A DNA stretch of 64,000 bases from an uncultured Oscillospiraceae bacterium (GTDB taxonomy: Bacteria > Bacillota > Clostridia > Oscillospirales > CAG-382): the NCBI GenBank assembly GCA_964485815.1, contig CAZAJX010000005.1, forward strand, positions 193 through 64,192, written 5' to 3'. The first letter of the stretch is position 1; every line of letters starts with the position of its first letter. The notes under the pieces are model-generated. The model ran no database searches, was not told the origin of the DNA, and was given only the letters and a program-made list of their open reading frames with translations. Both the position numbers and the translations under genes were made by a program. This document shows, one piece after another, positions 12,900-32,640 of this stretch.

Positions 12900-12936
12900 G
12901 TTTTTACTCCTCATATTCAAGGGTTTGAGTACTGAC

Positions 12937-12965
12937 AGTTTACCATAGTTTATTTGCGTTGTCAA
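12937..12965 (-). promoter_or_regulatory. putative promoter (TTGACA-17-TAAACT with TGg extended -10) for the DHHW gene
   Basis: Minus strand: ttgaca (12965-12960), 17-nt spacer, taaact (12942-12937). Confidence 0.5.
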
Positions 12966-12999
12966 TGCACGGCGCGGGAGATGTGTATAACTCCCCGGT

Positions 13000-13530
13000 T
13001 TATTCTGCATAATGAACGAGTTCGTCCAATTCTTTGCGTTTTTTCGGTCTGAGTTTGTCGTCATCTGCGGGGTATCCTAAGGTAATAACCAATCTTACTG
13101 CGCCGTCAAGACCGCATATCTCCCGTATTTTCATATCGTCAAGCCAGCCGAGAATGCAGGTGCCCAAGCCCTGATCTGCGGCTTCTGCTGTGATATATGC
13201 CGAGAGTATGCCTATATCTATGGAACGGTAATCGTTGCCCTTTACCTTTGCGCCCAGTGCGGCGGAGGCGACGTAAGGCTTTTCGGAAATGACCAGCATA
13301 ACAGGTGCGTCTGCGGCGAATTTGTTCATTCCCATTCCCGTAACAGCCTTTGCCACACGGCAGGCGGAATCGCCTTTGCAAACGGTAATATGGTACGGCT
13401 GACCGTTGCAAGCGGAGGGTGAAAGACGTGCGGAGGCGAGGATGGCGTCCAGCTTTTCTGTTTCCACTTCCCTGCTCGGATCATAATTTCTGCAGGACTG
13501 TCGTGTTTTGGCGATTTCGGTAAAATTCAT
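13000..13530 (-). CDS. nitroreductase-family protein
   Basis: MNFTEIAKTRQSCRNYD... is a typical nitroreductase N-terminus. ATG at 13530 after GGAGGAAG. Confidence 0.82.
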   Translation of the reverse strand: MNFTEIAKTRQSCRNYDPSREVETEKLDAILASARLSPSACNGQPYHITVCKGDSACRVAKAVTGMGMNKFAADAPVMLVISEKPYVASAALGAKVKGNDYRSIDIGILSAYITAEAADQGLGTCILGWLDDMKIREICGLDGAVRLVITLGYPADDDKLRPKKRKELDELVHYAE

Positions 13531-13668
13531 AGGCTTCCTCCACGGGACATTTTTTATTATTATACCACGGGGTACACCTGTTTTCAATGAAAAGTTAATA
13601 TTGCAAAAGCGAAAAAGCTTTGATATAATAAAAATAGTTTTAAAAATACATAAAAAGTGGGGTTTGTT

Positions 13669-15336
13669 ATGAGCTTTAAAAGAATATGCGTGCTTGTGCT
13701 TGCGTTTTTAATGTGTATGGGAGTTTTGGTATCCTGCACGGAAAACGAAACGAGCAACGATGAATCGGTACAAAACGAAAGCGTTCCCGAAGAGGAGAGT
13801 AAAGAAACCATGCCCGAATACTGGGGATTTAACGATTACAAAACGACAGAAATAACAGGCGCGCCCGAGGAGATCAAGTCTTATGAAACCACGGTTACCA
13901 AGGTAAGCGACAGCAAGTACGCTATGAGCTGCCAGACCGAGGCGGGCAAGCTGACCATAACTCTGGAAGAAAGACCCTGGGGCTGCTTTAACCTTTGGTC
14001 CTGGAACCTTGTGGATAACGACGGAAAGACTCACACTTTCGCTGTGGGCGCAACGGATTTTGAATACGTACATATTCCCACCACACCCAAGGGAACTAAC
14101 GTATGGTCGGGCGGAAACCACGGAAACGAAGCCTTTTTATCCATTGATTTTTACAACGCCGAAACCGGCGAAAAGCTTGAGCTTGAAAAAGGAAAGGCTG
14201 TAACCGTAAACTCTCTCCACGTTATCGAAAAGACAAAGCTGCTTTGGTTCCCCGATGACAACAGCGACAGTATCGGCGATTACAACAACAAAAATATGTC
14301 CTATACCGACGATGACGTTTACTGCGAAATGACCAGAAAGTACACCTTTACCGGTCCGCAGATAAAGCTGAATTGCGATTATAAATACGTAAAGGACGTA
14401 TCTCACAGCCGTTCTTACACCTGTATGTTCCCTATCAATAAAAAATACGGTCTTTGGTGCGAGATGTACGATAACAGCGGCAAGCTATTGAGAACAATAG
14501 AGACGCTCAAGGTAGGCGCGGCAGACTATTCCGGCCCCTCCAATTCCGGTAATGCGGCTACACGAGCAGTAATTTACGGGTACGCCGACCCCAGATATCA
14601 ATTTGACGTAAGAGTTACCACGTACGAGGATTCTCTGGATAAATGTCAGGGTGATTACAAGACTGCATACTGGGATATGAATACCACGGATAACAAGCTT
14701 TATTTCACCAAGTTCTCCAATTCCGCAAAGAGAACCTTAGAAGCGGGAACTGAATTCCACACCGAATGCTTCTGGCTGTTCAAATACGTTGAGGATGCGG
14801 TAGCGCCCGAGATAAGCGAGCCGGAACCTACAATTCCCGACGAGGCGGAGCCTGTGGGAACTTTAGTTTCGGGCGGTAAAGAATATACCCTTTCCGGTCT
14901 TTTGGGAACGGGATACGGCAACTACACGGCAAAGCTTACCGACGGAAAATATACCTCTACCCTTACATACGATAATAACTGGTTTTCATTCTTTAACAGC
15001 GCTTCTCTTACTCCCGAGGAGCTGAACACCGAAGACGGTATCGGCTGGCTTATAATAGATCTGGGCAAGGAAACGGATATTTCCTTCCTGCGCGCCCACA
15101 TCTGTAACGGCGGTACTGCGGGAATCAACGCGCCTCACAGTGCCACAGTTTCCGTATCGAGCGACGGCGAAACGTTTACCGACGTTGCATCCCTCCCCAT
15201 TTCCACCGATGCAAGCGCCATCTACTGGACTCACGCCGAAACCGAGGGTGTAACAGGCAGATATGTAAAATTCACCTTCAAGCCCAACGGATTGTTCGTT
15301 TTCCTTAACGAAGTTGAGGTCTACGAGGCTGAATAA
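13669..15336 (+). CDS. secreted lipoprotein with C-terminal discoidin-like (F5/8 type C-like) module
   Basis: Lipobox LVSC. The C-terminal ...AKLTDGKY...WLIIDLGKE...YVKFTF... module recurs in the 1029-aa lipoprotein. Start is ATG 13669 or GTG 13657. Confidence 0.72.
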   Translation: MSFKRICVLVLAFLMCMGVLVSCTENETSNDESVQNESVPEEESKETMPEYWGFNDYKTTEITGAPEEIKSYETTVTKVSDSKYAMSCQTEAGKLTITLEERPWGCFNLWSWNLVDNDGKTHTFAVGATDFEYVHIPTTPKGTNVWSGGNHGNEAFLSIDFYNAETGEKLELEKGKAVTVNSLHVIEKTKLLWFPDDNSDSIGDYNNKNMSYTDDDVYCEMTRKYTFTGPQIKLNCDYKYVKDVSHSRSYTCMFPINKKYGLWCEMYDNSGKLLRTIETLKVGAADYSGPSNSGNAATRAVIYGYADPRYQFDVRVTTYEDSLDKCQGDYKTAYWDMNTTDNKLYFTKFSNSAKRTLEAGTEFHTECFWLFKYVEDAVAPEISEPEPTIPDEAEPVGTLVSGGKEYTLSGLLGTGYGNYTAKLTDGKYTSTLTYDNNWFSFFNSASLTPEELNTEDGIGWLIIDLGKETDISFLRAHICNGGTAGINAPHSATVSVSSDGETFTDVASLPISTDASAIYWTHAETEGVTGRYVKFTFKPNGLFVFLNEVEVYEAE

Positions 15337-15978: not shown

Positions 15979-16110
15979 AGTGCGGGCAGAGTGGGACAAA
16001 GGCAGGTGTTTTTTACGAAAAGCGAGCGTAGGCGTAGTAATCTACGGTAGTCGAGCTTTTCCTGAAAGCGCTTGAAAAATAAGTATTTTTCATTCCTCAT
16101 ATAAAAAACA

Positions 16111-16149
16111 AAGTATGCTTTAATTTTGAAAAGCATACTTTTTTCTTTT
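16111..16149. terminator. bidirectional terminator
   Basis: aagtatgctt / aagcatactt 10-bp stem, A-run before it and T-run after it. Confidence 0.6.
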
Positions 16150-16233
16150 GGCTATTCTTTTTTGTTCTTTTCAAGCACGTAAAGACCGACTTTGTCTTTG
16201 CTTTGAGGAGAAGCGTGGGCGGGAACGCCGTTT

Positions 16234-16857
16234 TCATTTGCGTTCGCCGGTGATAATATATCTTATATTCTCCGTTATTTCATCTTCCTTTGGATTTGAC
16301 GCAATTATGGGAAAAACAACTTCTCTGCTTTCTCTCGTGTGAGGCAGTTTCCCCGCCGATTCAAGGGCTTGCGAGAGGTGGTTGTTCTGCAAATACAAAA
16401 AACACAGTACTGCCCGCATAGTAGCTTTTTGCTTTTCATTTTGAGATAACAAAAGTCCTTTTTCGGTAAACGCTATGGCTAAAGCGGTATCGCCCTTTAA
16501 CGCAAGCACACCCGCAAGACCCAACAGCATTTCCGCGTCATTGGGATACGTGCACAAGGCATCACGGTACACCTTTTCCGCATCCTCCAACCGGTCGGTT
16601 TTCATAAATATATTTGCTTTATCGTGAATATTGTATTTTGTATCTACCGCCCTTATAGTATCCATCCCCATAAGGAGATCTATGCTTGTTTCAAAAACGT
16701 TTGCCAGGGCGGGCAGCAGCGTGATATCGGGATACGTTTCGCCCCGCTCCCATTTGGAAACGCTTTGCGGCGTTATATTCAAATAGTCCGCCACGTCCTC
16801 CTGAGTAAGGTTTTTTTGAATTCTGAATTTTCTTAAATTTTCTGCAAGATACAACAT
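16234..16857 (-). CDS. XRE-family HTH regulator with TPR-like domain
   Basis: LTQEDVADYLNITPQSVSKWERGETYPD. Paralogue of 9907-11073. Confidence 0.8.
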   Translation of the reverse strand: MLYLAENLRKFRIQKNLTQEDVADYLNITPQSVSKWERGETYPDITLLPALANVFETSIDLLMGMDTIRAVDTKYNIHDKANIFMKTDRLEDAEKVYRDALCTYPNDAEMLLGLAGVLALKGDTALAIAFTEKGLLLSQNEKQKATMRAVLCFLYLQNNHLSQALESAGKLPHTRESREVVFPIIASNPKEDEITENIRYIITGERK

Positions 16858-17119
16858 AAAACACACCGTTCCGTACGTAAAATTCAGCCGTTAAGCGGCT
16901 GTAGCTCAATTATACCTTAAGCGGACGCCCAAAGCAATAACCCATTGCTTTAATCCGATTCGCCCATAGGGTGAACATAATGTTTATATTTGTGCTTTTT
17001 CACCCCGAAATGTACCGAAAACAAAGGAGTAAACAGTAAAAAAATGTTGTGTTTTGACGTAAATTATGATAACATATATGTGAATAATTATAGTTATTTA
17101 TATTAAGGAAGTCAAATTT

Positions 17120-17872
17120 ATGTACGATCTGCAAAAAGCCAGTATGTGGAAGCGCATTTCCGCGGCTTTGTTTGATTTTATTATATTGTGTATGGCTGCT
17201 GTGGGATTTGCCGCTCTGTTATCCGCTATGCTGGGATACGACGGATACACGGCGCAAATGCAGGAATACTACGCTGAGTATGAAGAAAAGTATGATATTT
17301 CCCTTGATCTTACGGTAAACGAATACAACGCATTAAGCGATGAGGAAAAAGCAAAATACGAGGAAGCCGACAAAGAGTTCGCATCAGACCCCGAGGTGAA
17401 CAAGCTTTACGGTATGATCTTCAATCTTACCCTGCTTATAATCATTTTCGGTATACTTGCCGCATTTATACTGCTGGAGTTTATCGTTCCCCTTATTTTC
17501 AAAAACGGGCAGACTCTGGGTAAAAAAATATTCGGAATCGGAGTTATGCGGGCAGACGGTGTGAAGATAACCCCCGTACTGCTGTTTGCCCGTACCGTGT
17601 TGGGTAAATACACGGTGGAAACAATGCTTCCCGTAATGATAGCTCTGCTTATTTATTTCAACGTTATGGGAATTATCGGCACGGTTGCCATATTTGCTAT
17701 CGCTCTGGTACAGTTGATAATGGTATTTGCCACTCACGCTCATTACGCCATTCACGATAAGCTGGCGTACACAGTAACGGTGGACATTGCCAGCCAGATG
17801 ATATTCGATACCGAAGAACAGCTTTTGGAGTACAAAAAGCAAAAGCATCTTGAAAGCACGATGCGATCTTAA
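17120..17872 (+). CDS. RDD-family membrane protein
   Basis: WKRISAALFDFIIL N-terminus and KNGQTLGKKIFGIGVMRADG segment, 3-4 TM segments. Confidence 0.75.
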   Translation: MYDLQKASMWKRISAALFDFIILCMAAVGFAALLSAMLGYDGYTAQMQEYYAEYEEKYDISLDLTVNEYNALSDEEKAKYEEADKEFASDPEVNKLYGMIFNLTLLIIIFGILAAFILLEFIVPLIFKNGQTLGKKIFGIGVMRADGVKITPVLLFARTVLGKYTVETMLPVMIALLIYFNVMGIIGTVAIFAIALVQLIMVFATHAHYAIHDKLAYTVTVDIASQMIFDTEEQLLEYKKQKHLESTMRS

Positions 17873-17923
17873 ATACGTTTAAAAAATATAAAAATATACA
17901 TCCTTCAGGAAAGGCAGCGTTTT

Positions 17924-19024
17924 ATGAAAATTGTTTTAGAAAACCTGACAAAAATCTTCCCCGGTCGCAACAAAAAGAAAAACGAGGAAGTTATCGCAGT
18001 CAATGACTTTACCTTCACTATTCCGGACGGAAAGCTGATCGGTCTTCTGGGCCCCTCCGGATGCGGTAAAAGTACCACGCTTTATATGATAAGCGGTCTG
18101 CAAAAGCCCACGGGCGGAAAGATATTCTTCGGGGACGATGACGTTACCCAGCTCTCTGCCGAAAACCGCGGAGTAGGTCTGGTATTCCAGAACTATGCAC
18201 TTTATCCCCACATGACCGTAAAGCAGAACATTATGTTCCCTCTCCAGAACCTCAAAGGCGCAGACAAGCTGAGCAAAGAGGAAATGGTTGAGCGCGCATA
18301 CACCGTTGCTAAGCTGGTACAGATCGATAACCTTATGGAAAGAAAGCCCTCGGAGCTTTCCGGCGGTCAGCAGCAGCGTGTCGCTATCGCCCGCGCTCTT
18401 GTAAAAATGCCTAAGGTGCTTTTGCTGGATGAGCCACTCTCCAACCTTGATGCACGTCTTCGTCTTCAGACCCGTGAAGAAATAAGACGTATTCAGAAAG
18501 AAACGGGAATTACCACCATATTCGTAACCCACGACCAGGAAGAGGCAATGAGTATATCCGACCTGATCGTAGTTATGAAGCTGGGCGTAGTTCAGCAGAT
18601 CGGCGCACCGCAAGAGGTTTACGACGATCCTATAAATCTGTTTGTAGCAAAATTCCTTGGAACTCCTCCCATTAACGTATTCAGCGGTAAGGTAGAAGGC
18701 GAAAAGCTTTATATCGGTGATGCCGCAGTGCTTGACGTTAAGGGCGTTGAAGATCAGGAAGTAACCGTTGGCGTTCGTCCCGAAGGATTTATTCTGGATA
18801 ACGATGGTCCTCTCGTATGCAATCTTAACAGCGTTGAGGTAATGGGACGCGACGTAAGCGTGGTGTCTTCCCACGAATGCGCTTTGGTTCCCAATATCCG
18901 TTCTATTATAGATGCGGACAACAAGGTTGAAGCAAAGGCAACCGTAAGCTACAGCTTAAAACCCCATAAGGTATTCCTGTTTGCAAAAGAAACCGAACAG
19001 CGCGTACGTTTTGAGGTGAAGTAA
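17924..19024 (+). CDS. ABC transporter ATP-binding protein, CUT1 (MalK/UgpC/MsmX-like) with C-terminal regulatory domain
   Basis: Walker A GPSGCGKST, signature LSGGQQQRVAIARAL, Walker B LLLDEPLSNLD. Confidence 0.92.
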   Translation: MKIVLENLTKIFPGRNKKKNEEVIAVNDFTFTIPDGKLIGLLGPSGCGKSTTLYMISGLQKPTGGKIFFGDDDVTQLSAENRGVGLVFQNYALYPHMTVKQNIMFPLQNLKGADKLSKEEMVERAYTVAKLVQIDNLMERKPSELSGGQQQRVAIARALVKMPKVLLLDEPLSNLDARLRLQTREEIRRIQKETGITTIFVTHDQEEAMSISDLIVVMKLGVVQQIGAPQEVYDDPINLFVAKFLGTPPINVFSGKVEGEKLYIGDAAVLDVKGVEDQEVTVGVRPEGFILDNDGPLVCNLNSVEVMGRDVSVVSSHECALVPNIRSIIDADNKVEAKATVSYSLKPHKVFLFAKETEQRVRFEVK

Positions 19025-19025
19025 T

Positions 19026-19967
19026 ATGGTAGAAAGCAAACACAAATGGAAAGCGTGGTTATATCTCGCTCCCGCCATTGTGCTGCTGTTGATATTTACC
19101 GTATGGCCTATAATCAACACGCTGAGAATGGCGTTTCTGGAAGGATATAACAGTATGTACGCCGCTGCCGGCGCAACGTTCAAGTTCGGTATCGGCAACT
19201 TCAAGCAGGTGCTTGCGTACAAGGACTTCCTCGTATGTCTTAAGAACACTATGCTGCTGTGCGTACTTACAGTTCCTATTTCAACCGTTCTGGCTCTGCT
19301 TATCGCCGTTGCGCTTAACTCCATAAAGCCGCTTCAGAAAATACTGCAGACCATCTTCTTCCTGCCCTACGTTACAAACTCCATCGCTATCGGTATGGTA
19401 TTTGCCGCTATGTTTAATATGGTCGGTTCTGCCTTCGGCGGTGAAAACGAGCTGATCATTACGGCAGGTATTGTAAACAATATTATCGAATTCTTCGGCG
19501 GAAGCCATATCAACTGGATAAACTCCGGCTCCACATATACCGCAAATATCGTGGTGCTGGTGGTATACACGGTATGGAATGCACTTCCCTTCAAAATACT
19601 TATTCTGCTGGGCGGACTGCAGAGTATAAACAAGCAGTATTACGATGCCGCCCGTGTAGACGGAACCAGCAGAAGCAGAGTATTTACAAGAATTACCGTT
19701 CCCCTTCTCTCACCTATGCTGGCATACGTTGTTATTACCGGCTTTATCGGCGGATTCAAGGAATATTCCAATATCGTAGGTATATTCGGCGAGGATATGG
19801 GCCCTGCAGGCGCACCTCTCAGCCTTAACACCATGGTAGGATTTATTTACGAATCGCTTGACAGCCACCAGGGACGCGCCAGCGCGGCAGCACTTATACT
19901 GTTTGCGATCATTTTTGTTGTAACCCTTATAAATCTTTGGGTCAGCAAAAAGAAAACGCATTATTAA
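19026..19967 (+). CDS. ABC transporter permease (MalF/UgpA-like)
   Basis: 6 TM segments, EAA-type loop AARVDGTSRSRVFTRITVPLL. Starts 1 nt after the ATPase stop codon. Confidence 0.9.
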   Translation: MVESKHKWKAWLYLAPAIVLLLIFTVWPIINTLRMAFLEGYNSMYAAAGATFKFGIGNFKQVLAYKDFLVCLKNTMLLCVLTVPISTVLALLIAVALNSIKPLQKILQTIFFLPYVTNSIAIGMVFAAMFNMVGSAFGGENELIITAGIVNNIIEFFGGSHINWINSGSTYTANIVVLVVYTVWNALPFKILILLGGLQSINKQYYDAARVDGTSRSRVFTRITVPLLSPMLAYVVITGFIGGFKEYSNIVGIFGEDMGPAGAPLSLNTMVGFIYESLDSHQGRASAAALILFAIIFVVTLINLWVSKKKTHY

Positions 19968-19982
19968 GGGAGGTAAAACGCT

Positions 19983-20870
19983 ATGGCTAACCTTAAAACT
20001 ATGGGCGAGAAAAACCTCCGCAGCGTATCCGCAAAGCAATTGGTGGGAAAGACGTTTTATAAGTTCCTTGTATACGCCTTTCTTATCATTATGGCGGTAA
20101 TAGTTCTGTTCCCCTTTTACTGGATGCTTATATCATCCGTAAAATCTCTTGACGAATACCGTCTTTCCGTTCCCACCCTGTTCCCCCGCGAAATACTGTG
20201 GGGCAACTACATTCAGGCGTTCAACCAAGCCACGTTGGGCAAGCTGTTTTTGAACACCCTTTACGTCGGCGTGGTATCCACCCTGCTTTCCCTCGTTATC
20301 ACCGTGCTTTCCGCTTTTGCTTTTGCACGTCTTGAGTTCAAGGGCAAAAACGCATTGTTCGCCGCACTTCTCGGCACAATGATGATCCCCGGTGAATTGT
20401 TCACCATCACCAACTACGCCACGGTAAATGCTTTCGGATGGATGAATTCCTTTACGGTATTGATCGTTCCCTTCCTCGTAAGCGTATTTTACATTTATCT
20501 GCTGCGTCAGAACTTTATGCAGATACCCGATGAGCTTTATCTTGCCGCAAAGGTTGACGGTACAAGCGACCTTAAGTACCTTTGCAAGGTAATGATCCCC
20601 TTGGCGCTTCCCACGCTTATATCCATTACCATTCTTAAGATGATGGGTGCGTGGAACTCTTACATCTGGCCCAGACTGGTTGCAAACGATGCGGACCATC
20701 AGCTTATTACCAACGGTCTGCGCAATGCATTTACCGATGCCAGCGGCGACGTAAATATTCCCGTTCAGATGGCGGCGGTCGCCATAGTATCTTTCCCGCT
20801 GTTCCTGGTGTTCGTATTCCTTCGTAAGTATATTATGAAGGGCGTATCAAGAAGCGGTATCAAAGGATAA
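19983..20870 (+). CDS. ABC transporter permease (MalG/UgpE-like)
   Basis: EAA loop AAKVDGTSDLKYLCKVMIPLA, GGAGG RBS. Confidence 0.9.
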   Translation: MANLKTMGEKNLRSVSAKQLVGKTFYKFLVYAFLIIMAVIVLFPFYWMLISSVKSLDEYRLSVPTLFPREILWGNYIQAFNQATLGKLFLNTLYVGVVSTLLSLVITVLSAFAFARLEFKGKNALFAALLGTMMIPGELFTITNYATVNAFGWMNSFTVLIVPFLVSVFYIYLLRQNFMQIPDELYLAAKVDGTSDLKYLCKVMIPLALPTLISITILKMMGAWNSYIWPRLVANDADHQLITNGLRNAFTDASGDVNIPVQMAAVAIVSFPLFLVFVFLRKYIMKGVSRSGIKG

Positions 20871-20919
20871 CAGCCAATCCATTTTGGCATCACATATCAA
20901 AAGATCAAAGGAGAAAAAA

Positions 20920-22350
20920 ATGAAAGCAAACAGAATTATATCTTTCATTCTCGTTGCGGTTATGTGCTTGGGCGTTTTCGCTCTCACAGGCTGTAACAAC
21001 ACTTCGGTCGCTTCCGACCTCGTTATCCCCGAAAACGGATTTGACACCACAACTCCCGTAACCATTACCTTCTATCACACCATGGGCGCAAATCTTCGTG
21101 ACGTTCTCGATTATTATATCGTAGAATTCAACAAGCTTTACCCCAACATCACCGTTCAGCACGAGCAGGTTGGCTCTTACGATGACGTTCGTGATCAGAT
21201 AAAGACCGAGATCACCGTAGGCAACCAGCCCAATATCGCTTACTGCTATCCCGACCACGTTGCGCTTTACAATATGGCGCAGGCTGTTCAGACTCTTGAC
21301 GTGCTGATCGAAAGCGAGATCGAGGTCACCAGAGCAGACGGAACTACCGAAATACTCGGTCTTACCGATGCACAGAAGGACGATTTTATTAAGGGTTATT
21401 ACGAAGAAGGTCAGCAGTTCGGCGACGGACTTATGTACACCCTTCCCCTTTCCAAGTCTACCGAAGTTCTTTACTACAACAAGACATTCTTTAACAAGCA
21501 CGGTCTTACCGTTCCCACCACTTGGGACGAAATGGAAAAGCTTTGCGAAGAGATCAAAAAGATCGATCCCGACTGTATCCCTCTCGGCTATGACTCCGAA
21601 TCCAACTGGTTTATCACTCTTTGCGAGCAGAGCGGCTCTCCCTACACCAGCGCAGGCGATGATCACTTCCTCTTTGACCACCAGACCAACTACGATTTCG
21701 TTGCACGCTTCAGAACCTGGTATCAGAAGGGCTACGTAACCACTCAGGAGCTTTCCGGCGGTTACACCTCCGAACTGTTCACCAAGGCTGAATCCGAAGC
21801 AGGTAACAGCTATATGTCTATCGGCTCTTCCGCAGGTGCAACTCACCAGCGTCCCGATAAGGTTGACGAAGCTTATCCCTTTGAAGTAGGCATCGCTACC
21901 ATTCCCCAGATCAATCCCGAAGATCCCAAGGTTATCTCTCAGGGTCCTTCTCTCTGTATCTTCAAGAAGGCTGATCCTCAGGAAGTTATCGCATCCTGGC
22001 TGTTTGTAAAGTATCTTACCACCACCGTTGAATTCCAGGCTGAATTCTCTATGGCTTCCGGTTACGTTCCCGTAATCAAATCCGTAGGCGAAAACGCTAT
22101 TTACAAGAACGAATTCCTTGATAAGGCTGACGGCGGCGACTTTATTTCCGCACTCAGCGCAAAGATCTGTCTGGAGCAGGAAGACGCTTACTACACCTCT
22201 CCCGCATTCAACGGCTCCTCCACCGCCCGTGACCAGGTCGGTCTGCTTATGCAGAAATGCTTATCCGCAAACTGGGGCAGCGATGTGGAAGAACAGATAA
22301 AGAAAGCCTTTGAAGATGCTATTGCCGAATGTGAATATCAGGCAGGTTAA
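20920..22350 (+). CDS. extracellular solute-binding lipoprotein (SBP family 1), substrate unknown
   Basis: Lipobox LTGC. ATG at 20920 after AAAGGAGA. Family-1 SBP-like sequence. Confidence 0.88.
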   Translation: MKANRIISFILVAVMCLGVFALTGCNNTSVASDLVIPENGFDTTTPVTITFYHTMGANLRDVLDYYIVEFNKLYPNITVQHEQVGSYDDVRDQIKTEITVGNQPNIAYCYPDHVALYNMAQAVQTLDVLIESEIEVTRADGTTEILGLTDAQKDDFIKGYYEEGQQFGDGLMYTLPLSKSTEVLYYNKTFFNKHGLTVPTTWDEMEKLCEEIKKIDPDCIPLGYDSESNWFITLCEQSGSPYTSAGDDHFLFDHQTNYDFVARFRTWYQKGYVTTQELSGGYTSELFTKAESEAGNSYMSIGSSAGATHQRPDKVDEAYPFEVGIATIPQINPEDPKVISQGPSLCIFKKADPQEVIASWLFVKYLTTTVEFQAEFSMASGYVPVIKSVGENAIYKNEFLDKADGGDFISALSAKICLEQEDAYYTSPAFNGSSTARDQVGLLMQKCLSANWGSDVEEQIKKAFEDAIAECEYQAG

Positions 22351-22359
22351 TGAACTTAT

Positions 22360-23691
22360 ATGAACAAGATTTTTAACCAAAAGATTTATTCCCTTTTACT
22401 CGCGGTTGCTATGCTTTTGTGCCTGGCAGCCTGCGGACCCACCGATGAGGTTTCCAACCAAAGCGGTCATATCGATTACGCCGCTTCAATTACGTTGGAT
22501 ATGAACTCATCCACGCTTAAACAAGAAGTTACGGTACACGCTTATATCGACGGCGACACCACCCACTTCAAAGTTCCCTCTTCGGTTATTCCCGGCGGTA
22601 TTCTGAAAGCCAGATATCTTGCCATAAACACTCCCGAATCTACCGGTAAAATAGAGGAATGGGGAAAAACCGCGGCGAATTACACAAAGCAGGTATTGCT
22701 TGATGCACAGTCCATTATCGTTGAATCCGATGACGATAAATGGAATGCAGACTCCACCGGAAGCAGATATCTGGTTTGGGTATGGTACAAGCCTCAGGGC
22801 AGCGACCAATACCGCAATCTGAATATCGAGATACTTCAGCAGGGTCTTGCGGTTGCTTCCAATTCCGCAAACAACCGTTACGGCGAAACCTGTATGAACG
22901 CACTTAATCAGGCAAAGACGGAACAGCTGCACGTTCACTCCGGTAAGCAGGATCCCAACTTCCCTTACGGAGAGGCAACCGAGCTTACCTTGAGAGAGCT
23001 TCGTACCAAGATAACCGAATATGATAACTGCAAGGTAGCTTTTGAAGGCGTTATTACAAAGAACAACAATAACACCTGCTACGTAGAAGAATACGATCCC
23101 GAAAGCGGTCTTTACTACGGTATGACCATTTATTACGGATACAGCCTTAACGGCGCAGGTCTGCAGATACTTTCCGTAGGCAACAGAGTCCGTATAGTAG
23201 GCACGGTTCAGTATTACGAAACCGGCGGAACGTATCAGGTTTCCGGTCTGGAATATTCCATGATGCGTCCCGACGATCCCGCAAATATCCAAAAGATAAG
23301 CGACGGACACTCCCCCGCATACGTTTTGACCGATCCCGCAACATTTAATGACGGCAAGGTAGAGCTGGTTATCGACGATGCCGCTAAAACCTTCGGCTAC
23401 GCAGAGCTGGCTATTTACACCTCCGTTGAAATGACCGACCTTAAGGTAGTGGACACCTACACTACCACAAACGAAGAAAGCTCCTCCAAGGGCGCTATCA
23501 CTCTCACCTGCAAGGCAGGGGACGAAACTATTTCCGTAAGAACCATAGTTTTGTACGATGAGGACGGCAATCTTATAACGGCGGATCTTTTTGAAGGAAA
23601 GACGATATCCGTAAAAGGATTGGTAGATTACTTTGACGGAACCTACCAGATCAAGGTCTTCTCCGTTAACGATATTACGATTTCTGATTAA
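22360..23691 (+). CDS. secreted thermonuclease (staphylococcal nuclease, SNase) lipoprotein with C-terminal OB-fold-like domains
   Basis: Lipobox LAAC. YIDGDTTHFKV...ARYLAINTPES...YRNLNIEILQQGLA matches the SNase catalytic core. 9 nt after the SBP stop. Confidence 0.85.
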   Translation: MNKIFNQKIYSLLLAVAMLLCLAACGPTDEVSNQSGHIDYAASITLDMNSSTLKQEVTVHAYIDGDTTHFKVPSSVIPGGILKARYLAINTPESTGKIEEWGKTAANYTKQVLLDAQSIIVESDDDKWNADSTGSRYLVWVWYKPQGSDQYRNLNIEILQQGLAVASNSANNRYGETCMNALNQAKTEQLHVHSGKQDPNFPYGEATELTLRELRTKITEYDNCKVAFEGVITKNNNNTCYVEEYDPESGLYYGMTIYYGYSLNGAGLQILSVGNRVRIVGTVQYYETGGTYQVSGLEYSMMRPDDPANIQKISDGHSPAYVLTDPATFNDGKVELVIDDAAKTFGYAELAIYTSVEMTDLKVVDTYTTTNEESSSKGAITLTCKAGDETISVRTIVLYDEDGNLITADLFEGKTISVKGLVDYFDGTYQIKVFSVNDITISD

Positions 23692-23711
23692 TTTTGAAAG
23701 GAAAGCATATA

Positions 23712-26012
23712 ATGAAGAAATTTTTAGCAATCCTGTTGGCAGTTCTTATGTGCTGCGGTATTATGGCTTCCTGCTCGGACAAGACCGAAGGTCCCGACTT
23801 GGCAGATGCGCTTTCTTACCTCAAGAGCCTTTACAAGGACAGCGCAAAGGAAACTCCCACCGATTACGACGTTGTAGGTAAGATACTTATTAACAACACC
23901 GTAGAATTCACGGTTACCTGGGAAAGCGATAACGAAAACGTTACTGTAAAAGAAAGCAGCAGAAACGGATTTTTCACTATCGACGTTCCCGATAAGACCG
24001 AAGCGGAAATTCCTTACGTTCTCACCGCAACCATTAAGGACGCAGACGGCAACACCGAAGCCACTACCTTTGAAAAGGTCGTTCCCATTGTTGATAATAC
24101 CGCAGTAGTAAGCGCACCCGAGGAAGGCGTTGAATACGCACTTTATCTCGTTCACACCTCTCTGGGCAAAACCCTTTACGCTACTCACGAGCTCCAGAAC
24201 AACAAATTTATCGTTACCACCACCGATCCCAAGGAAGCTCCCGCTTTCTTTGCAGAGGTTGTTGAAGGCGGCTACAAGTTCTATACTATGATAGATGACG
24301 TTAAGAACTACGTTACCGCTTCCGTTGTAAAGACCGAAGAAGGAAATTACAGCAAGTATATCAATTACGGCACAGAAGGCTCCGTATGGTATTACAACAC
24401 CGAATGCAACGCTTGGATGACTATGGTTGAGGGCGGCGAATACGTAATGGGTACTTACAGCTCTTATACCACAATTTGTATTTCCGAATCCAGCTATATA
24501 ACTCCCGAAAACAGCGGTGTATCCCAGTTCCCCGCAGTTCTTATTAAGAAAGAAGCTGCAGAGAATATGGGCCCCGCCGAAGAAGTTGAGATTTACGAAA
24601 CCGCGCAGGATATCGTAAACGAGGCTTACAAGCTTGAAGCAGGCGCATACCTTTCCGGCGGACACAAGTACACCCTCACCGGTGTGATCACCAAGGTGGA
24701 CAGCGCGTACAGCGCACAGTACGGCAACGTAACCGTAACCATCGTTGTTGACGGTATGGACGATAAGCCCATCCAGTGCTTCCGTGCCTCCGGCGACGGC
24801 GCAGATATTATCGACGTTGGCAATACCATTACCGTAACCGGTCCTATCGTTAACTATGCAAAGAAGGATGATAGCGGAAATATAACCTCTACCATCATCG
24901 AAATGGAATATCCTACACTTGATTCTCACGATGCAGTAGCTTCCGATGATCCCGATGATACCTCCAAGCCCGACGGAGATACCTCCGAGCCCGAAAACAA
25001 CGATACCCCTTCCGAAGCACCCCAGAACAAGACTATAAAGGATATACTGGGCATCAAAGAAGGCAGCGAGCCTTCCTATGAAGTTATTGTAACCGGCGTT
25101 GTTGATGAGATCACCAATACCACTTGGGGCAATATGTATATCAAGGATGCAGACGGCAACAAGCTTCTTATCTACGGTCTGTACGATGCAAACGGCAACA
25201 CCAGATACGATGCTATGGCTAAAAAGCCCGCAGTAGGCGATACCGTTACCGTTCAGGCTCCCGTTTCTTTCTTTAACGGACAGGTACAGCTTAAGAACGC
25301 AAAGCTTAAAGACCTCACTTCCGGCGGCGGTTCTACTACCGATCCCGGCGATGAACCCGGCGATAATCCCAATGATACACCTGCAACCGGCAACACCACG
25401 CCTATTGCAGATATTCTTAAGTATACCGAAGGCAATGCACCTACTACCGAAATTTTCGTAAGCGGCACCGTTGTTGAAGTAGCCAGCACCACCTGGGGCA
25501 ACATTTACATAACCGACGGTAAAGGCAACAACCTCTACCTTTACGGCACTTACGATGAAGATGGCAACAGATACGATGCCTTTGAAGTAAAGCCCACAAA
25601 GGGTGATATAATCAAGGTAAAGGGCACTATCTCCTTCTTCAACGGTGTTCCCCAGATAAAGAACGCTGTTCTCGTAGAGCACACCGTAAAGGAATATGAA
25701 CCCGGCGAGCCCCAGAACGCTACTATCGCAGAAGTTCTCGCGCTTACCGATTTTATTGATCATCCCGTTATCGTAACCGGTACTATCACCAAAACCTACG
25801 GTGAGAATTGGGCTACGTACGGTAACTTCTATATTACCGACGGAAACGGCAACGAGCTTCTCATCTACGGTTTGTACGATGAGAACAACACCAGATACGA
25901 TAAGATGGACGTTCAGCTTGAGGTTGGCGACACTATCACCGTTCAGAGCGAAGTATCCTTCTATAATAAGGTTCCTCAGCTTAAGAACGCCACTCTGCTT
26001 GAAGTAGAATAA
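23712..26012 (+). CDS. surface lipoprotein with four tandem OB-fold-like (YhcR-type) modules, candidate nucleic-acid binding
   Basis: Lipobox MASC. Three about 95-aa repeats of TWGN-YI-D--GN-L-IYG-YD...FFNG-PQ-KNA-L plus one divergent copy. Confidence 0.72.
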   Translation: MKKFLAILLAVLMCCGIMASCSDKTEGPDLADALSYLKSLYKDSAKETPTDYDVVGKILINNTVEFTVTWESDNENVTVKESSRNGFFTIDVPDKTEAEIPYVLTATIKDADGNTEATTFEKVVPIVDNTAVVSAPEEGVEYALYLVHTSLGKTLYATHELQNNKFIVTTTDPKEAPAFFAEVVEGGYKFYTMIDDVKNYVTASVVKTEEGNYSKYINYGTEGSVWYYNTECNAWMTMVEGGEYVMGTYSSYTTICISESSYITPENSGVSQFPAVLIKKEAAENMGPAEEVEIYETAQDIVNEAYKLEAGAYLSGGHKYTLTGVITKVDSAYSAQYGNVTVTIVVDGMDDKPIQCFRASGDGADIIDVGNTITVTGPIVNYAKKDDSGNITSTIIEMEYPTLDSHDAVASDDPDDTSKPDGDTSEPENNDTPSEAPQNKTIKDILGIKEGSEPSYEVIVTGVVDEITNTTWGNMYIKDADGNKLLIYGLYDANGNTRYDAMAKKPAVGDTVTVQAPVSFFNGQVQLKNAKLKDLTSGGGSTTDPGDEPGDNPNDTPATGNTTPIADILKYTEGNAPTTEIFVSGTVVEVASTTWGNIYITDGKGNNLYLYGTYDEDGNRYDAFEVKPTKGDIIKVKGTISFFNGVPQIKNAVLVEHTVKEYEPGEPQNATIAEVLALTDFIDHPVIVTGTITKTYGENWATYGNFYITDGNGNELLIYGLYDENNTRYDKMDVQLEVGDTITVQSEVSFYNKVPQLKNATLLEVE
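25032..26009 (+). repeat. three tandem intragenic repeats (about 285 nt each, joined by G/D/P/T-rich linkers)
   Basis: Units start near 25032, 25401 and 25722. Roughly half the residues are identical, judged by eye. Confidence 0.7.
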
Positions 26013-26033
26013 AAACCATTCAAATAATAACAG

Positions 26034-26059
26034 CCCCGCATATCGCGGGGTTGTTTTTT
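26034..26059 (+). terminator. rho-independent terminator of the ABC/nuclease operon
   Basis: ccccgc/gcgggg stem with 5-nt loop followed by ttgtttttt. Confidence 0.7.
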
Positions 26060-26067
26060 GCAATTAC

Positions 26068-26096
26068 TTGACGAAACGGAAATAATGATATACAAT
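26068..26096 (+). promoter_or_regulatory. putative promoter (TTGACG-17-TACAAT) of the RNase gene
   Basis: ttgacg at 26068-26073, 17-nt spacer, tacaat at 26091-26096. Confidence 0.5.
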
Positions 26097-26121
26097 ATAA
26101 AGCAGAGGTGAGTGTATTTTT

Positions 26122-27288
26122 ATGGAACGGACACGCCGTTTTACTGCTTTTATAATAACGCTTGTAATTATCGTTTCCCTTTGCTCCTGCGGACAGAACG
26201 ATATACAATTATCCGAGCTGAATATAACCAACTGTGAAAATACCACTCTGGAAACGGGAATAACCCTGCTTCTTGAAACGGATGCGCCCGAGGAATTGAA
26301 GGACGATCTGTTGTGGATAGCTTCAAGCGATTCCGTTACGGTGGACGGCACGGGACTGGTAACAGCCATGGAAGAAGGAACGGCGGCGGTAACTGTAAGC
26401 TATAAAGAGCTTCGGGACACCGTAATAATTTACGTTGTTGCCCCGAGTGAGGATAAAGAAGATTTAAACCTATCTGTAAATACCGAGGCGAGAGATGCCT
26501 TTTACGGGGACAGCGACCCTGCGGACAGCTATGAGGAAGCTTTGGAAAGATCTGAAAAAGGTATACTCTCCGGTGCGGAAAAAGTGCCCGACCAAGCGCC
26601 CGTGCTCGCCCTTTATATGCCTATGAAAAACGAAATGTACATACGGAACAACGTTCCCTATTTTGCCGATGAAAACACCTACGTTGTTGTGAATTACCGC
26701 GGCGAAGAGGTGTTCAGAGTGTACCGCGGAGGGGGTTACATTACCCTTGAAGAGGTTGCGGCATACGTTTTTGCTTTTGGTGATATTCCCGCTAATTACG
26801 TTTCAAGTAAAAGGACAGACCCTAAAAACAGCATTTGGGGCGAGAATTTAAGGCTGAACCACTCCAAGTTCAGCGGCAACACAAACAAGTATCCCTACGA
26901 GCCCGAGCTTCCCGAGATAAGCGGTTGCGGCGGTAATCTGCAATACTATGAGCTTGATGTCGGCACTACGGGTACGGATTGCGACCCCAGCTACTCTATA
27001 AAAACATATAATGACGGAAAGCGTATAACCCGCGGTGCGGCACGAATCGTATACACCGCCTGCGACGTTAACGGCAACGATATTATTGATATAAACGAAA
27101 AATATCTGTTTTACACTTATAACCATTATAACGATTTTCAGGAATACCTGAATTACTACGGCGGCTGGGGAGAAATGTTCGGTAACATTACCGGCGGCGG
27201 ACAGCTTTCATCAAAAAGCTATTACAACCCCACTCCCTACGTTCCCGTTATATACGACGATATTCGCAATTACAACGAAGCAGCATAA
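26122..27288 (+). CDS. secreted lipoprotein: Big_2-like Ig domain plus C-terminal barnase/RNase N1-family ribonuclease domain
   Basis: Lipobox LCSC. LLWIASSDSVTVDGTGLVTA is Big_2-like. The C-terminus aligns by eye to barnase: FGDIPANYVS (barnase LPDNYIT), YYELDV (catalytic Glu), RGAARIVYT (RNSDRILYS), TYNHYNDF (TTDHYQTF, catalytic His). Confidence 0.72.
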   Translation: MERTRRFTAFIITLVIIVSLCSCGQNDIQLSELNITNCENTTLETGITLLLETDAPEELKDDLLWIASSDSVTVDGTGLVTAMEEGTAAVTVSYKELRDTVIIYVVAPSEDKEDLNLSVNTEARDAFYGDSDPADSYEEALERSEKGILSGAEKVPDQAPVLALYMPMKNEMYIRNNVPYFADENTYVVVNYRGEEVFRVYRGGGYITLEEVAAYVFAFGDIPANYVSSKRTDPKNSIWGENLRLNHSKFSGNTNKYPYEPELPEISGCGGNLQYYELDVGTTGTDCDPSYSIKTYNDGKRITRGAARIVYTACDVNGNDIIDINEKYLFYTYNHYNDFQEYLNYYGGWGEMFGNITGGGQLSSKSYYNPTPYVPVIYDDIRNYNEAA

Positions 27289-27296
27289 AAAGCATC

Positions 27297-27429
27297 CCCC
27301 ACAAATGCTGTTTGCATTTGCGGGGACCCCGAAAATAAAAAAAAGTACCCCAAGAAAACTATCGTTTTCTTGGGGACCCCGAAAATAAAAAATCACCCCA
27401 AGAAGATTTTTACTTCTTGGGGTTTTTGG
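27297..27429. repeat. three tandem hairpins with a 50-bp period. Two carry the GGGGACCCCGAAAATAAAAAA tail and the last acts as a bidirectional terminator
   Basis: Stems at 27297-27308/27314-27325, 27348-27359/27364-27375 and 27396-27405/27413-27422. The tail is repeated at 27322 and 27372. Confidence 0.8.
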
Positions 27430-27430
27430 T

Positions 27431-28144
27431 TTATTTAAGGCGTTCAAGAACCTTATGGTCGGTTTTATCGTAAGTGAGAGGCGTAACGGAGATATAACCG
27501 CTTAAAACCGCGTCTATATCCACGTCAAGGCTATCGAATTCCCGCATTACGGGACCGCCGAACTGCTGATATTCGTCCCCTTCCATATGAACGAACTCAT
27601 CTGTATAAAACATTTGTCCCATTCGGGTAAGGCGTATTCCCTTTGCGGGAGAATGGGGAATGTTTACGTTAAAAAGATTACCGTAGCTGAACAGAGATCT
27701 TGCAAAGAAAAACTGCAGGATCATATCAAAATACTTTGGCGCATCCATAAGGATTTCAAAATCCGTAGATACGGCAACGCCTTTTATACCGTAGCGGCTT
27801 CCTTCAAGTACTGCGCCCACGGTGCCGGAATAAGATACGTCCCAGCCAAGATTATATCCTCTGTTAACTCCCGAAATGAGGAAATCGTATTTTCCCTTAA
27901 GTCCCGTAACGGCGAACCGCACGCAGTCTGCGGGGGTAGATGCCACGCTGTAGCACTCTACGCCGTCAACAAGATTCACTTTTTTAACCTCTATACGGTT
28001 GCGGAAATCTATGCTCTGGCTTTTTGCGCTTTGCTCTGTTTTGGGTGCGACAAGAGTTACCTCCCCGAACTGCTTTGCCCAATTTGCCAAGACGGGCAGT
28101 ATGGGAGATTCGATTCCGTCATCGTTGGTTATAAGAATTCTCAT
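27431..28144 (-). CDS. surE: 5'/3'-nucleotidase SurE
   Basis: MRILITNDDG N-terminus. ATGA overlap with the upstream stop codon (alternative ATG at 28150). Confidence 0.9.
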   Translation of the reverse strand: MRILITNDDGIESPILPVLANWAKQFGEVTLVAPKTEQSAKSQSIDFRNRIEVKKVNLVDGVECYSVASTPADCVRFAVTGLKGKYDFLISGVNRGYNLGWDVSYSGTVGAVLEGSRYGIKGVAVSTDFEILMDAPKYFDMILQFFFARSLFSYGNLFNVNIPHSPAKGIRLTRMGQMFYTDEFVHMEGDEYQQFGGPVMREFDSLDVDIDAVLSGYISVTPLTYDKTDHKVLERLK

Positions 28145-29118
28145 AGCCATCCCTCGTTTTCTTGTTTGTATTTTTTGAGCAACTCGTCCGCATCCTTAAC
28201 AAGACGACGCATTTGCGCGGTATTTTTCACGTTTGCTCCTGCGGCGCAGGCGTGTCCGCCGCCGCCGTATTTTTCCGCCAGCTCGCTTACCGTAACGAAA
28301 CGGGAGCGAAGACGGACGCGGATATTATCCTCGGTTTCAATAAACGCCAGCCATATAAGGCTGTTTTTAATATTATCGATATATCCTACGCAAGCGGACG
28401 CATCCTCAATGGAAAGTCCGTATTTTTCGCGGGTCTTTTTATCAACGTAAATATAAACCACGCCGTTTTCGGATATTTTCATCTTATCGTATACATAAGA
28501 ACGGAATTTAAGGGTGTGGTATTCCTTCATATACAGATTTGCATACAGGGTATCAAGGTCTATACCAAGGTCTATAAGCATTGCCGCAAGACGAAGTGTA
28601 TCTCCCGAAACGGAGCGATACTTAAACCGTCCCGAATCCGTAACCATTCCGCAGTAGATGTAAGTGGCCGCCTGAGCGTCTATCTTCAATTCGTCCTTGA
28701 AGACACTGTAAAACTCCGCGATCATTTCGCAGGAGGAAGAGTAATCCTCCATTATCCATTCCACGTCCCCGTAAGATTCTACGGGAATGTGGTGGTCTAT
28801 TTTTACGATACTCTTGCACAGCGAAAACTTTTTGTTGGAGATACGCGCCGCAGTTGCGGTATCCACCACTATTCCCAAGGCGTCTTTATACATTTCATCG
28901 GGAATAGGCTCGTCCTCGCCGCCCAAAAAGGCAAGGTGGGACGAATAATCGGAATTGAGAAGATATATCTCCTTTTCGGGAAAAGACAATTTAAGTATTC
29001 TGTGCAATCCCTTGGAAGAGCCGATAGCATCTCCATCCGGCATCTTGTGGCGGAATATTATTATGCGGTCGTACGCCTTTATGGTGTCAAGCACCGCTTT
29101 CATTTGTTCATACTTCAT
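28141..29118 (-). CDS. DHH/DHHA1 phosphoesterase (NrnA-like nanoRNase / pAp phosphatase)
   Basis: PDGDAIGS, IDHH and GGGGHACAAG motifs. Confidence 0.85.
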   Translation of the reverse strand: MKYEQMKAVLDTIKAYDRIIIFRHKMPDGDAIGSSKGLHRILKLSFPEKEIYLLNSDYSSHLAFLGGEDEPIPDEMYKDALGIVVDTATAARISNKKFSLCKSIVKIDHHIPVESYGDVEWIMEDYSSSCEMIAEFYSVFKDELKIDAQAATYIYCGMVTDSGRFKYRSVSGDTLRLAAMLIDLGIDLDTLYANLYMKEYHTLKFRSYVYDKMKISENGVVYIYVDKKTREKYGLSIEDASACVGYIDNIKNSLIWLAFIETEDNIRVRLRSRFVTVSELAEKYGGGGHACAAGANVKNTAQMRRLVKDADELLKKYKQENEGWL

Positions 29119-29119
29119 A

Positions 29120-30052: not shown

Positions 30053-30080
30053 AAAAAGTGTTTTTCCTTTCAAGGCAGGG

Positions 30081-31283: not shown

Positions 31284-31314
31284 TTGTTTACCTCCCTTTT
31301 TGGTTAAAATGGGG

Positions 31315-32625: not shown

Positions 32626-32640
32626 AGTTACTCCTCTCTT

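Follow-up and report, generated by a model that had tools for sequence, protein, structure and literature searches.

A sugar-type ABC importer encoded with a surface nuclease in an uncultured Oscillospiraceae bacterium: a candidate route for the uptake of nucleic-acid-derived solutes

The uptake of phosphorylated nucleotides or oligonucleotides as bacterial nutrients is, to our knowledge, poorly understood, and we know of one solute-binding protein (SBP) from Thermus as the only structural lead, which comes without genomic context. Nucleoside importers of the ATP-binding cassette (ABC) type normally use SBPs of the Bmp/PnrA type. The YhcR-type surface nuclease of Bacillus subtilis combines OB folds with a staphylococcal-nuclease-type (SNase) domain, acts extracellularly on both DNA and RNA and carries its own 5'-nucleotidase domain; we know of no link between YhcR and an ABC importer. 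Some Mycoplasma operons encode an SNase together with an ABC transporter, and since 2007 their role in nucleic-acid scavenging has had the status of a hypothesis. In M. agalactiae one transcript covers the SNase MAG_5040, an ATPase, two permeases and the SBP-like lipoprotein P80, and import of nucleic-acid precursors has been proposed (PMC3585158). The MslA/mhp379-type operon of M. bovis and M. gallisepticum has been called a putative nucleotide transporter operon (PMC4045577), the SNase-ABC operon is also covered in a review (PMC12115388), and no gene has yet been assigned to the uptake of nucleotides by M. mycoides (PMC6609329). The "DNA-degradation loci" of Candidatus Izemoplasmatales combine extracellular nucleases with ABC transporters, phosphohydrolases and large nucleic-acid-binding lamin-tail proteins (Wasmund et al. 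2021, PMC8289736). Here we describe a locus in a stretch of 64,000 nucleotides (nt) from an uncultured Oscillospiraceae bacterium (contig CAZAJX010000005.1; the whole stretch is called the window below), in which a CUT1-type ABC importer shares an operon with a lipid-anchored SNase and faces an operon for nucleotide and nucleoside breakdown. That this importer takes up solutes derived from nucleic acids is, in our judgment, very probable; that its cargo consists of short phosphorylated di- or oligonucleotides is a more specific proposal, drawn from sequences and structure models, to which we assign a probability of about 0.6. From the observed gene content, conservation, fold and pocket similarity we infer each enzymatic and binding step as well as the size and charge of the cargo.

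The transporter operon comprises seven genes on the forward strand (17120-26012), separated, in order, by 51, 1, 15, 49, 9 and 20 nt. It starts with a gene for an RDD-family membrane protein with three hydrophobic segments (17120-17872; PF06271, E = 3.9e-15), followed by an ABC ATPase of the UgpC/MalK (CUT1) type with a C-terminal regulatory domain (17924-19024). Pfam and NCBIfam models identify the latter (ABC_tran, E = 2.5e-37; CysA_C_terminal, 30.0 bits at a cut-off of 29.7; OB_MalK, 26.9 bits at a cut-off of 27), whose best NCBIfam match is UgpC with 343 bits, below the cut-off of 432 bits, with MalK also among the best. Permease 1 is MalF/UgpA-like (19026-19967; BPD_transp_1, E = 2.6e-18) and permease 2 MalG/UgpE-like (19983-20870; BPD_transp_1, E = 1.3e-13); their best NCBIfam matches are UgpA/MalF, headed by UgpA, and UgpE/MalG, headed by UgpE (E = 1.8e-31). 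Then come the SBP lipoprotein (20920-22350; SBP_bac_8, E = 6.6e-36, and SBP_bac_1; lipobox LTGC), a surface lipoprotein consisting of an SNase domain and two OB folds (22360-23691; PF00565, 39 bits at a cut-off of 21; lipobox LAAC) and a surface lipoprotein of 766 amino acids (aa) with several OB folds (23712-26012; tRNA_anti_2, 30.9 bits, and tRNA_anti-codon, 29.5 bits; lipobox MASC). A GGAG precedes the ATG of the SBP gene at 20920 by 8 nt, and AGGAAA lies upstream of the start codon at 23712. Since the signal peptides of the SBP, the SNase and the multi-OB protein all end in a lipobox, the three proteins are expected to be tethered to the membrane on its outer side. With a MalK/UgpC-type ATPase, two MalF/MalG-like permeases and a family-1 extracellular SBP, the importer belongs to the CUT1 class (TC 3.A.1.1). 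The operon is closed by an intrinsic terminator at 26034-26059 on the forward strand (CCCCGCATATCGCGGGG followed by TTGTTTTTT), the first convincing one, as only weak in-gene hairpins precede it on this strand. A preliminary description of the window had placed the ATPase, the two permeases, the SBP and the SNase in one operon with gaps of 1-49 nt and a first terminator at 26034. The open reading frame (ORF) coordinates and gaps agree with this, and the listed genes do stand together; the true unit, however, is larger, as it includes the RDD gene upstream and the multi-OB gene downstream, before the terminator.

Conservation was assessed in an orthologue scan with one genome per species, which yielded relatives of the SBP in at least 589 species genomes. 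All context counts given here refer to the best 80 of these loci (SBP identity 65-83%), in which the window proteins were searched by tblastn; a locus "with room" is one whose contig reaches far enough to show the gene in question. The 80 loci stem from gut and rumen metagenome-assembled genomes (MAGs) labelled Oscillospiraceae, Acutalibacteraceae, Faecousia, Lachnospiraceae, Ruminococcus and others, several of the 80 being labelled as spirochaetes; such labels are possibly unreliable for MAGs. The SNase-OB gene directly follows the SBP gene in 80 of 80 loci, and because this adjacency recurs in orthologous loci of so many different species genomes, it reflects more than chance. The remaining parts are equally constant: among loci with room, the multi-OB gene is present in 73 of 73, permease 2 in 75 of 75, permease 1 in 70 of 70, the ATPase in 66 of 66 and the RDD gene in 65 of 65.

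The linkage also extends to distant relatives. A search with the SBP among 1.84 billion representative proteins returned 448 clusters (50% identity) at E <= 1e-30, and an SNase adjoins the SBP in three relatives at 35-38% identity whose contigs continue past the SBP. The first (P0229; 38%, Bacilli MAG) is found in the order DHH/DHHA1, Inositol_P, three RDD genes, ATPase, two permeases, SBP, SNase, a 710-aa protein and a protein with an LTD (lamin-tail) domain; the second (P0278; 37%) in the order three RDD genes, ATPase, two permeases, two SBPs, SNase and an 830-aa OB protein; and the third (P0269; 35%) in the order SBP, SNase, a 665-aa protein, a second SBP and an LTD-SNase protein. A relative at 41% identity (P0289) is preceded by an ATPase and two permeases and followed by the end of its contig, and one at 31% (P0271) lies in a sugar context (AraC, BNR_4, GFO oxidoreductases) without a nuclease. 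Moreover, a single ORF of 993 aa (P0150; L092, 562-3543) contains both an SBP and an SNase domain, which constitutes a link of the Rosetta-stone type; metagenomic fusion ORFs can be artefacts of assembly or gene calling, and this fusion occurs on two independent contigs. Taken together, the 80 loci, the relatives at 35-38% identity and the fused ORF clearly show that other genomes share the SNase linkage; its restriction to this one genome had been named in the preliminary description as something that would speak against its reading. Three tandem RDD paralogues are present in relatives at 37-38% identity (L082, 4226-6776; L085, 2884-6606). The RDD protein is possibly an accessory subunit of the importer; RDD-domain proteins also appear in passages of papers on Mce transporters.

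Several side observations concern the distribution and the wider SBP clade. The whole operon occurs, with an SBP identity of about 70%, in MAGs labelled as spirochaetes (L056, L061, L062, L066 and L072; labels Ornithospirochaeta, Sphaerochaetaceae, Bullifex and Spirochaetales), which suggests either horizontal transfer among gut bacteria or mis-binning. Other fusions within the SBP clade join the SBP to an OB fold (P0162) or to N-terminal BspA-type leucine-rich-repeat or Listeria-Bacteroides repeat domains (P0137, P0258). A relative at 33% identity with another pocket signature (L081, 8783-9916) directly follows a gene for a fused NT5C (5'(3')-deoxyribonucleotidase)-guanylate kinase and lies near DeoC and a xanthine/uracil permease, a context that hints that SBP clades neighboring this one may also handle nucleotide-related ligands.

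The best sequence match of the SBP in the PDB is the 7C0F series from Thermus thermophilus (phmmer E = 2.5e-22), followed by UgpB (about 2e-10) and, more weakly, by sugar binders. The Thermus protein is titled the dinucleotide-binding protein of an ABC transporter and was crystallized with uridylyl-3'-5'-phospho-guanosine; 7C0F and its mutant series correspond to Chandravanshi et al., FEBS J 2021, according to a citation within PMC12718374. A structure prediction of the SBP, suggested as a check in the preliminary description, gave an AlphaFold2 (AF2) model with a pLDDT of 85 and a pTM of 0.84, which is closest to the Thermus dinucleotide-binding SBP and not to a sugar binder: the top 25 Foldseek matches in the PDB are all the Thermus protein (E = 4e-24; target-normalized TM-score 0.78-0.81). 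From the PDB entry titles and mutant sequences we took Y56, F79, N81, S127, Y224, T240, Y246 and Q274 as the ligand residues of the Thermus protein, and phmmer and MAFFT alignments, the sole basis of this pocket comparison, give Y87, Y110, D112, S180, Y282, S303, H309 and Q341 as their equivalents in the window. The resulting signatures, YFNSYTYQ in Thermus and YYDSYSHQ in the window, share four identical positions and differ by four similar or polar substitutions (F to Y, N to D, T to S, Y to H), so that four aromatic positions are retained (Y87, Y110, Y282 and H/Y309). Summed over the eight positions, the BLOSUM62 score is 30, compared to 9.6 ± 8.1 for random sets of eight aligned positions (P about 0.01); the background identity is 26%. 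Of 120 close homologues, 113 carry YYDSYSHQ. Most of 150 representatives retain the signature in the wider form YYDSYS[YH]Q, and the commonest form among them is YYDSYSYQ, which is closer still to the Thermus signature. The three distant relatives linked to an SNase carry YYDSYSYQ or its Y-to-F variant YYDSFSYQ, and the relative in the sugar context has a different residue set without the signature. Judged by its sequence, the SBP appears to work like the dinucleotide binder and to have its pocket pattern, outside its orthologous group. Together with the modelled fold, this makes it a candidate binder of di- or oligonucleotides. There are also weak matches to the model of the mycoplasmal lipoprotein P68 (window SBP, E = 4.7e-5; P0229, E = 4.8e-13).

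The SNase domain of the nuclease spans about residues 54-194 and is followed by the two OB folds, whose Pfam matches are sub-threshold. Equivalents of the SNase residues D21, R35, T41, E43 and R87 are kept in the window protein and conserved in 76-78 of 80 aligned sequences (window plus 79 orthologues); the equivalent of D40 is Asn in the window. For the 766-aa protein, the AF2 model (pLDDT 87) shows N-terminal beta-rich domains and four OB folds at about residues 319-407, 457-536, 581-658 and 686-765; its low pTM is to be expected from this beads-on-a-string layout. With a probability of 1.00, Foldseek matches it to OB proteins that bind single-stranded DNA or RNA, namely Teb1, POT1, CST, RPA32 and the anticodon domain of LysRS, and on the strength of this model we propose that it may serve as a nucleic-acid capture protein. 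The four folds are visible only in the structure model, as a BLAST self-comparison revealed no internal repeats at E <= 1e-3. Among the orthologous loci (L001-L080) the protein varies between 220 and 2544 aa, as is typical of a fast-evolving surface protein, and only about its N-terminal half is well kept (50-65% identity over about 50% of the query).

Beyond the terminator, and behind a promoter-like site (TTGACG-17-TACAAT, 26068-26096), lies a gene on the forward strand for an accessory lipoprotein (26122-27288; lipobox LCSC) with a Big_2 domain (E = 6e-5) and a probable RNase domain of the barnase/RNase N1-T1 type. The latter assignment draws on a PF00545 match below the cut-off (E = 0.0023; 18.9 bits, cut-off 24), on two weak collinear BLASTP pieces against barnase, including YTYNHYNDF against KTTDHYQTF (the NHY catalytic-histidine motif), and on E...RG..RIVY...NHY motifs recognized by eye. 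A PDB sequence search with this RNase-like protein, as with the multi-OB protein, gave nothing significant, and the RNase gene is found in only 13 of the 80 loci.

Facing the transporter operon is a run of ten genes on the reverse strand (27431-36342), which their gaps of -23 to 31 nt, cdd/deoB apart, mark as a single operon. In the direction of transcription these are tdk (thymidine kinase; 35596-36183 or 36342), deoC (34926-35594), deoD (34190-34906 or 34948), deoB (phosphopentomutase; 33059-34180), cdd (cytidine deaminase; 32641-33057 or 33240) and pdp (pyrimidine-nucleoside phosphorylase; 31315-32625), each of which exceeds at least one curated NCBIfam cut-off in agreement with Pfam. They are followed by an HD-domain phosphohydrolase (30081-31283; PF01966), which is dGTPase-like in that dGTPase models match below their cut-offs, by two NrnA-like DHH/DHHA1 phosphoesterases and, as the last gene, by the 5'/3'-nucleotidase SurE (27431-28150; TIGR00087, 154.5 bits at a cut-off of 135). 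Both phosphoesterases match the NrnA model; the DHH and DHHA1 Pfam domains pass in the first (29120-30073), and the second (28141-29118) shows DHH and GGGH motifs. The paralogues score 246 and 229 bits, below the equivalog cut-off of 350 bits, and DHH and GGGGH motifs are present in both translations. For cdd, deoD and tdk the gaps were measured from the longest ORFs, the likely true starts being internal Met codons; the 182-nt ORF overlap of cdd and deoB is an artefact of the longest-ORF start that disappears with an internal Met start. Between the RNase gene and SurE there are three consecutive strong hairpins with T-runs (27296-27423), two of which share the arm CCCCAAGAA; they are probably bidirectional terminators for the convergent operons.

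None of the ten proteins of this operon has a signal peptide. Among the locus genes scanned there is no secreted nucleotidase or phosphatase, and no Bmp-family match, hence no nucleoside SBP of the Bmp/PnrA type, was found among the locus proteins scanned; both results indicate that dephosphorylation follows import. Of the 49 loci whose contigs continue for 9 kb or more beyond the start of the SNase gene, 35 have the NrnA pair; SurE is found in 35 of 80 loci and the HD hydrolase in 19 of 80. By their combined gene content, the transporter and catabolic operons make positions 17120-36342 of the window read as one neighborhood of nucleic-acid uptake and catabolism.

Based on these parts we propose the following route. 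The lipid-anchored four-OB protein would capture extracellular DNA or RNA, which the lipid-anchored SNase-OB nuclease would cut into short fragments, with a contribution of the barnase-like RNase in some genomes. The SBP would then bind short products that carry phosphates, dinucleotides or small oligonucleotides being the most likely, and the CUT1-type importer, made up of the ATPase and the two permeases and perhaps assisted by the RDD protein, would take them up at the expense of ATP. In the cytoplasm the two NrnA-like phosphoesterases would split the oligonucleotides, SurE and the HD hydrolase would remove phosphates, and Pdp, DeoD, Cdd, DeoB and DeoC would feed the nucleosides to central metabolism, with Tdk salvaging thymidine. 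The preliminary description had suggested that the SBP binds nuclease products such as deoxyribose, nucleotides or short oligonucleotides. A nucleic-acid-derived ligand gains support from the Thermus match by sequence and fold, from the pocket residues and from the adjoining NrnA/SurE/deo operon; of the ligands named, the context favors phosphorylated di- or oligonucleotides, whereas free deoxyribose is less favored.

The size of the cargo is the point at which the most serious rival explanation sets in. In it, the scavenging role is the same, but the importer takes up monomers (3'- or 5'-mononucleotides, nucleosides or deoxyribose), and the NrnA-like enzymes act mainly as 3'-phosphatases, similar to pAp-phosphatases. 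SNase-type nucleases release 3'-phosphorylated mono-, di- and oligonucleotides, many of them 3'-mononucleotides, which is compatible with such a cargo, as are the nucleotidase-type enzymes SurE and HD hydrolase and the Inositol_P genes (CysQ-like 3'-phosphatases) adjoining distant relatives. The import of single nucleotides is also the model put forward for Mycoplasma (PMC4045577). Against monomers stand the two paralogues of an oligonucleotide-degrading type that are conserved beside the operon and the full set of four aromatic stacking positions of the dinucleotide pocket. The aromatic positions, the lack, among the locus genes scanned, of an extracellular phosphatase and of the Bmp/PnrA-type SBP that is usual for nucleoside importers, and the recurrence of NrnA, and of CysQ-type 3'-phosphatase genes in distant relatives, all favor phosphorylated di- or oligonucleotides over nucleosides. 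We therefore regard a monomeric cargo as unlikely, albeit worth keeping in mind.

The import of di- or oligonucleotides has to be weighed against several observations that count against it. The SBP is only 21-26% identical to the Thermus protein; a search seeded with the latter lists, down to about 34% identity, almost only Deinococcota, one Bipolaricaulota MAG apart; and the Thermus operon consists of two permeases and the SBP only, with no nuclease as neighbor. Hence, the two SBPs are remote homologues and not orthologues, and the Thermus operon, considered as contextual support, adds none. The ligand of the Thermus protein came along from the expression host during purification and is thus of uncertain physiological meaning, and Y246 and N81 of the Thermus protein are replaced by His and Asp in the window SBP, both of which change the character of the residue. 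In the Foldseek search a binder of cyclic maltosyl-maltose and then UgpB come next, with scores only slightly weaker than those of the Thermus protein. The SNase calcium ligand D40 is Asn in 70 of the 80 aligned sequences and Asp in 6. About 30% of the loci with enough flank lack the NrnA pair nearby, and SurE, HD and deo genes are variably attached across loci. Finally, neither the Rfam scan nor a comparison of upstream regions revealed an operator or riboswitch common to the transporter and catabolic operons: Rfam gave nothing at the gathering score near the operon and nothing at E <= 1 in 16100-18000, and the regions upstream of the RDD gene, the RNase gene and tdk share only 9-10-mers expected by chance.

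The domain families themselves would allow an ordinary CUT1 importer of sugars or oligosaccharides, with the nuclease and the OB proteins merely co-located for the remodelling of extracellular DNA in biofilms or for defense. Pfam and NCBIfam put all four transporter parts in sugar-type families, many PDB relatives of the SBP bind oligosaccharides, and the public annotations of these proteins read only "extracellular solute-binding protein" or "hypothetical protein". Mere co-location is hard to reconcile with an SNase linkage that is present in 80 of 80 loci and persists to 35% identity, or with the existence of an SBP-SNase fusion. Likewise, no glycoside hydrolase was found among the genes scanned in or beside the operon, the adjoining operon is one of nucleotide and nucleoside catabolism, and the pocket signature resembles that of the dinucleotide binder and not that of the relative in the sugar context. 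A sugar importer is thus very unlikely. To a similar degree we consider it improbable that the locus scavenges phosphate, with a Ugp-like importer of glycerophosphodiesters or glycerol-3-phosphate and a nuclease that merely frees phosphate. It is true that UgpC, UgpA, UgpE and UgpB are the best NCBIfam matches of the four parts, and that UgpB ranks next-best by sequence and, just after one oligosaccharide binder, among the next-best by fold. Yet all Ugp models remain far below their equivalog cut-offs, and with 57.8 bits against a cut-off of 411 the SBP was rejected as a member of UgpB. Furthermore, among the locus genes scanned there is no glycerophosphodiesterase, no gene of glycerol-3-phosphate or glycerol catabolism, no pst gene and no Pho regulator; the neighbors are genes of nucleoside catabolism. 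An apparatus for DNA uptake or surface DNA processing that serves genetic exchange instead of nutrition, which the surface OB-fold DNA-binding proteins and the nuclease could recall by their likeness to early competence steps, was dropped as hardly credible, because no ComEC, ComEA, ComF or pilus genes are present among the locus genes scanned, importers that depend on a binding protein and have permeases of the MalF/G type carry small solutes, and the neighboring deo operon is catabolic.

In the remainder of the window, the scanned regions 7.9-16 kb and 36.8-64 kb contain no nucleic-acid-related genes. A gene with HTH_3 and TPR domains upstream of the transporter operon (16234-16866, reverse strand) was considered as its regulator and rejected, as it is found in 1 of 80 loci only; it belongs to a trio of HTH_3 regulator paralogues, of which two contain TPR repeats, and the other members lie at 9907-11100 (reverse strand) and 60029-61549 (forward strand). 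The sole Rfam match at the gathering score in the whole window is a T-box leader (RF00230, 95.1 bits) at 61615-61870 on the forward strand, upstream of the ORF at 61993-63210. Long stop-free antisense ORFs of up to 779 aa on the reverse strand (23724-26063, 22507-23730, 17936-18874 and 20905-21846) are most likely shadow ORFs due to codon composition and not genes. DHHW-family proteins (11604-13064 and 47467-48744, both reverse strand), surface proteins of the F5/8 type C (13657-15336, forward strand, and 51232-54321, reverse strand; one with DUF4855) and a CotH kinase-like protein (49640-51193) are related to surface or polysaccharide functions and unconnected to the importer.

A literature search found no paper on this system in Clostridia and, for Firmicutes, no described oligonucleotide importer or NrnA-linked transporter. 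It is set apart from the Mycoplasma and Izemoplasmatales loci by the Clostridia host, the RDD and multi-OB parts, the linkage to NrnA and deo genes and the pocket tie to the Thermus dinucleotide binder. As a broader and more tentative proposal, which we hold to be possible without giving it the better odds, the locus may typify a widespread kind of nucleic-acid utilization locus in gut Clostridia that has not yet been described and that gut spirochaete MAGs carry too. In such loci a dedicated CUT1-derived importer would take in intact 3'-phosphorylated di- or oligonucleotides, which a capture protein with OB folds and an SNase would produce on the cell surface, and paired NrnA enzymes and the deo pathway would consume them. 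If this holds true, the RDD membrane proteins would form a novel type of accessory subunit for such importers, and the YYDSYS[YH]Q clade of about 450 clusters would represent bacterial oligonucleotide-binding proteins that are now annotated as sugar binders. Hundreds of "sugar ABC transporter" annotations would then need changing, and the pocket signature could be used to recognize the SBP clade. Being conserved and complete, the locus would make the whole path from surface capture to breakdown accessible to experiment in Clostridia that are abundant in gut and rumen, and it suggests dietary, host and microbial DNA or RNA as a source of carbon, nitrogen and phosphorus for these organisms.

Compared to the known systems, the locus shares parts with each of them. 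With UgpBAEC of E. coli and M. tuberculosis it has in common the CUT1 class, the subunit types and, as proposed for the window, a phosphate-ester ligand; unlike UgpBAEC, it lies in a context of nucleic-acid and not of glycerol metabolism, and all four of its parts fall far below the Ugp cut-offs. In contrast to YhcR with its own nucleotidase domain, dephosphorylation in the window system appears to be cytoplasmic. The Thermus 7C0F protein is the best match by both sequence and fold, with four of the eight presumed pocket positions identical and four substituted, but the SBP of the window is a lipoprotein and exceeds it in length by about 70 residues. By their description, the Izemoplasmatales loci resemble the distant relatives of the window SBP, beside which genes with LTD domains are found, whereas their transporters were interpreted by the authors as importers of nucleosides or nucleobases (PMC8289736).

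The closest functional analogue, by analogy of architecture, is the Mycoplasma SNase-ABC operon with its likewise putative substrate; the members meant are MAG_5030-5070 of M. agalactiae, mhp379 of M. hyopneumoniae, MslA/MGA_0676 of M. gallisepticum and MBOVPG45_0307-0311 of M. bovis. The nuclease-ABC linkage in Mycoplasma, which the preliminary description had cited, is real (PMC3585158, PMC4045577). Both systems combine a surface SNase lipoprotein and an SBP-like lipoprotein with one ATPase and two sugar-type permeases. Unlike the mycoplasmas, however, the host of the window is a walled gut bacterium of the Clostridia, its gene order runs from the transporter through the SBP to the nuclease, and a conserved multi-OB capture lipoprotein and an RDD protein are added. 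Moreover, in the window the locus is physically linked to the NrnA/SurE/deo catabolic genes, which suggests that it serves nutritional catabolism and not only the salvage needs of an auxotroph.

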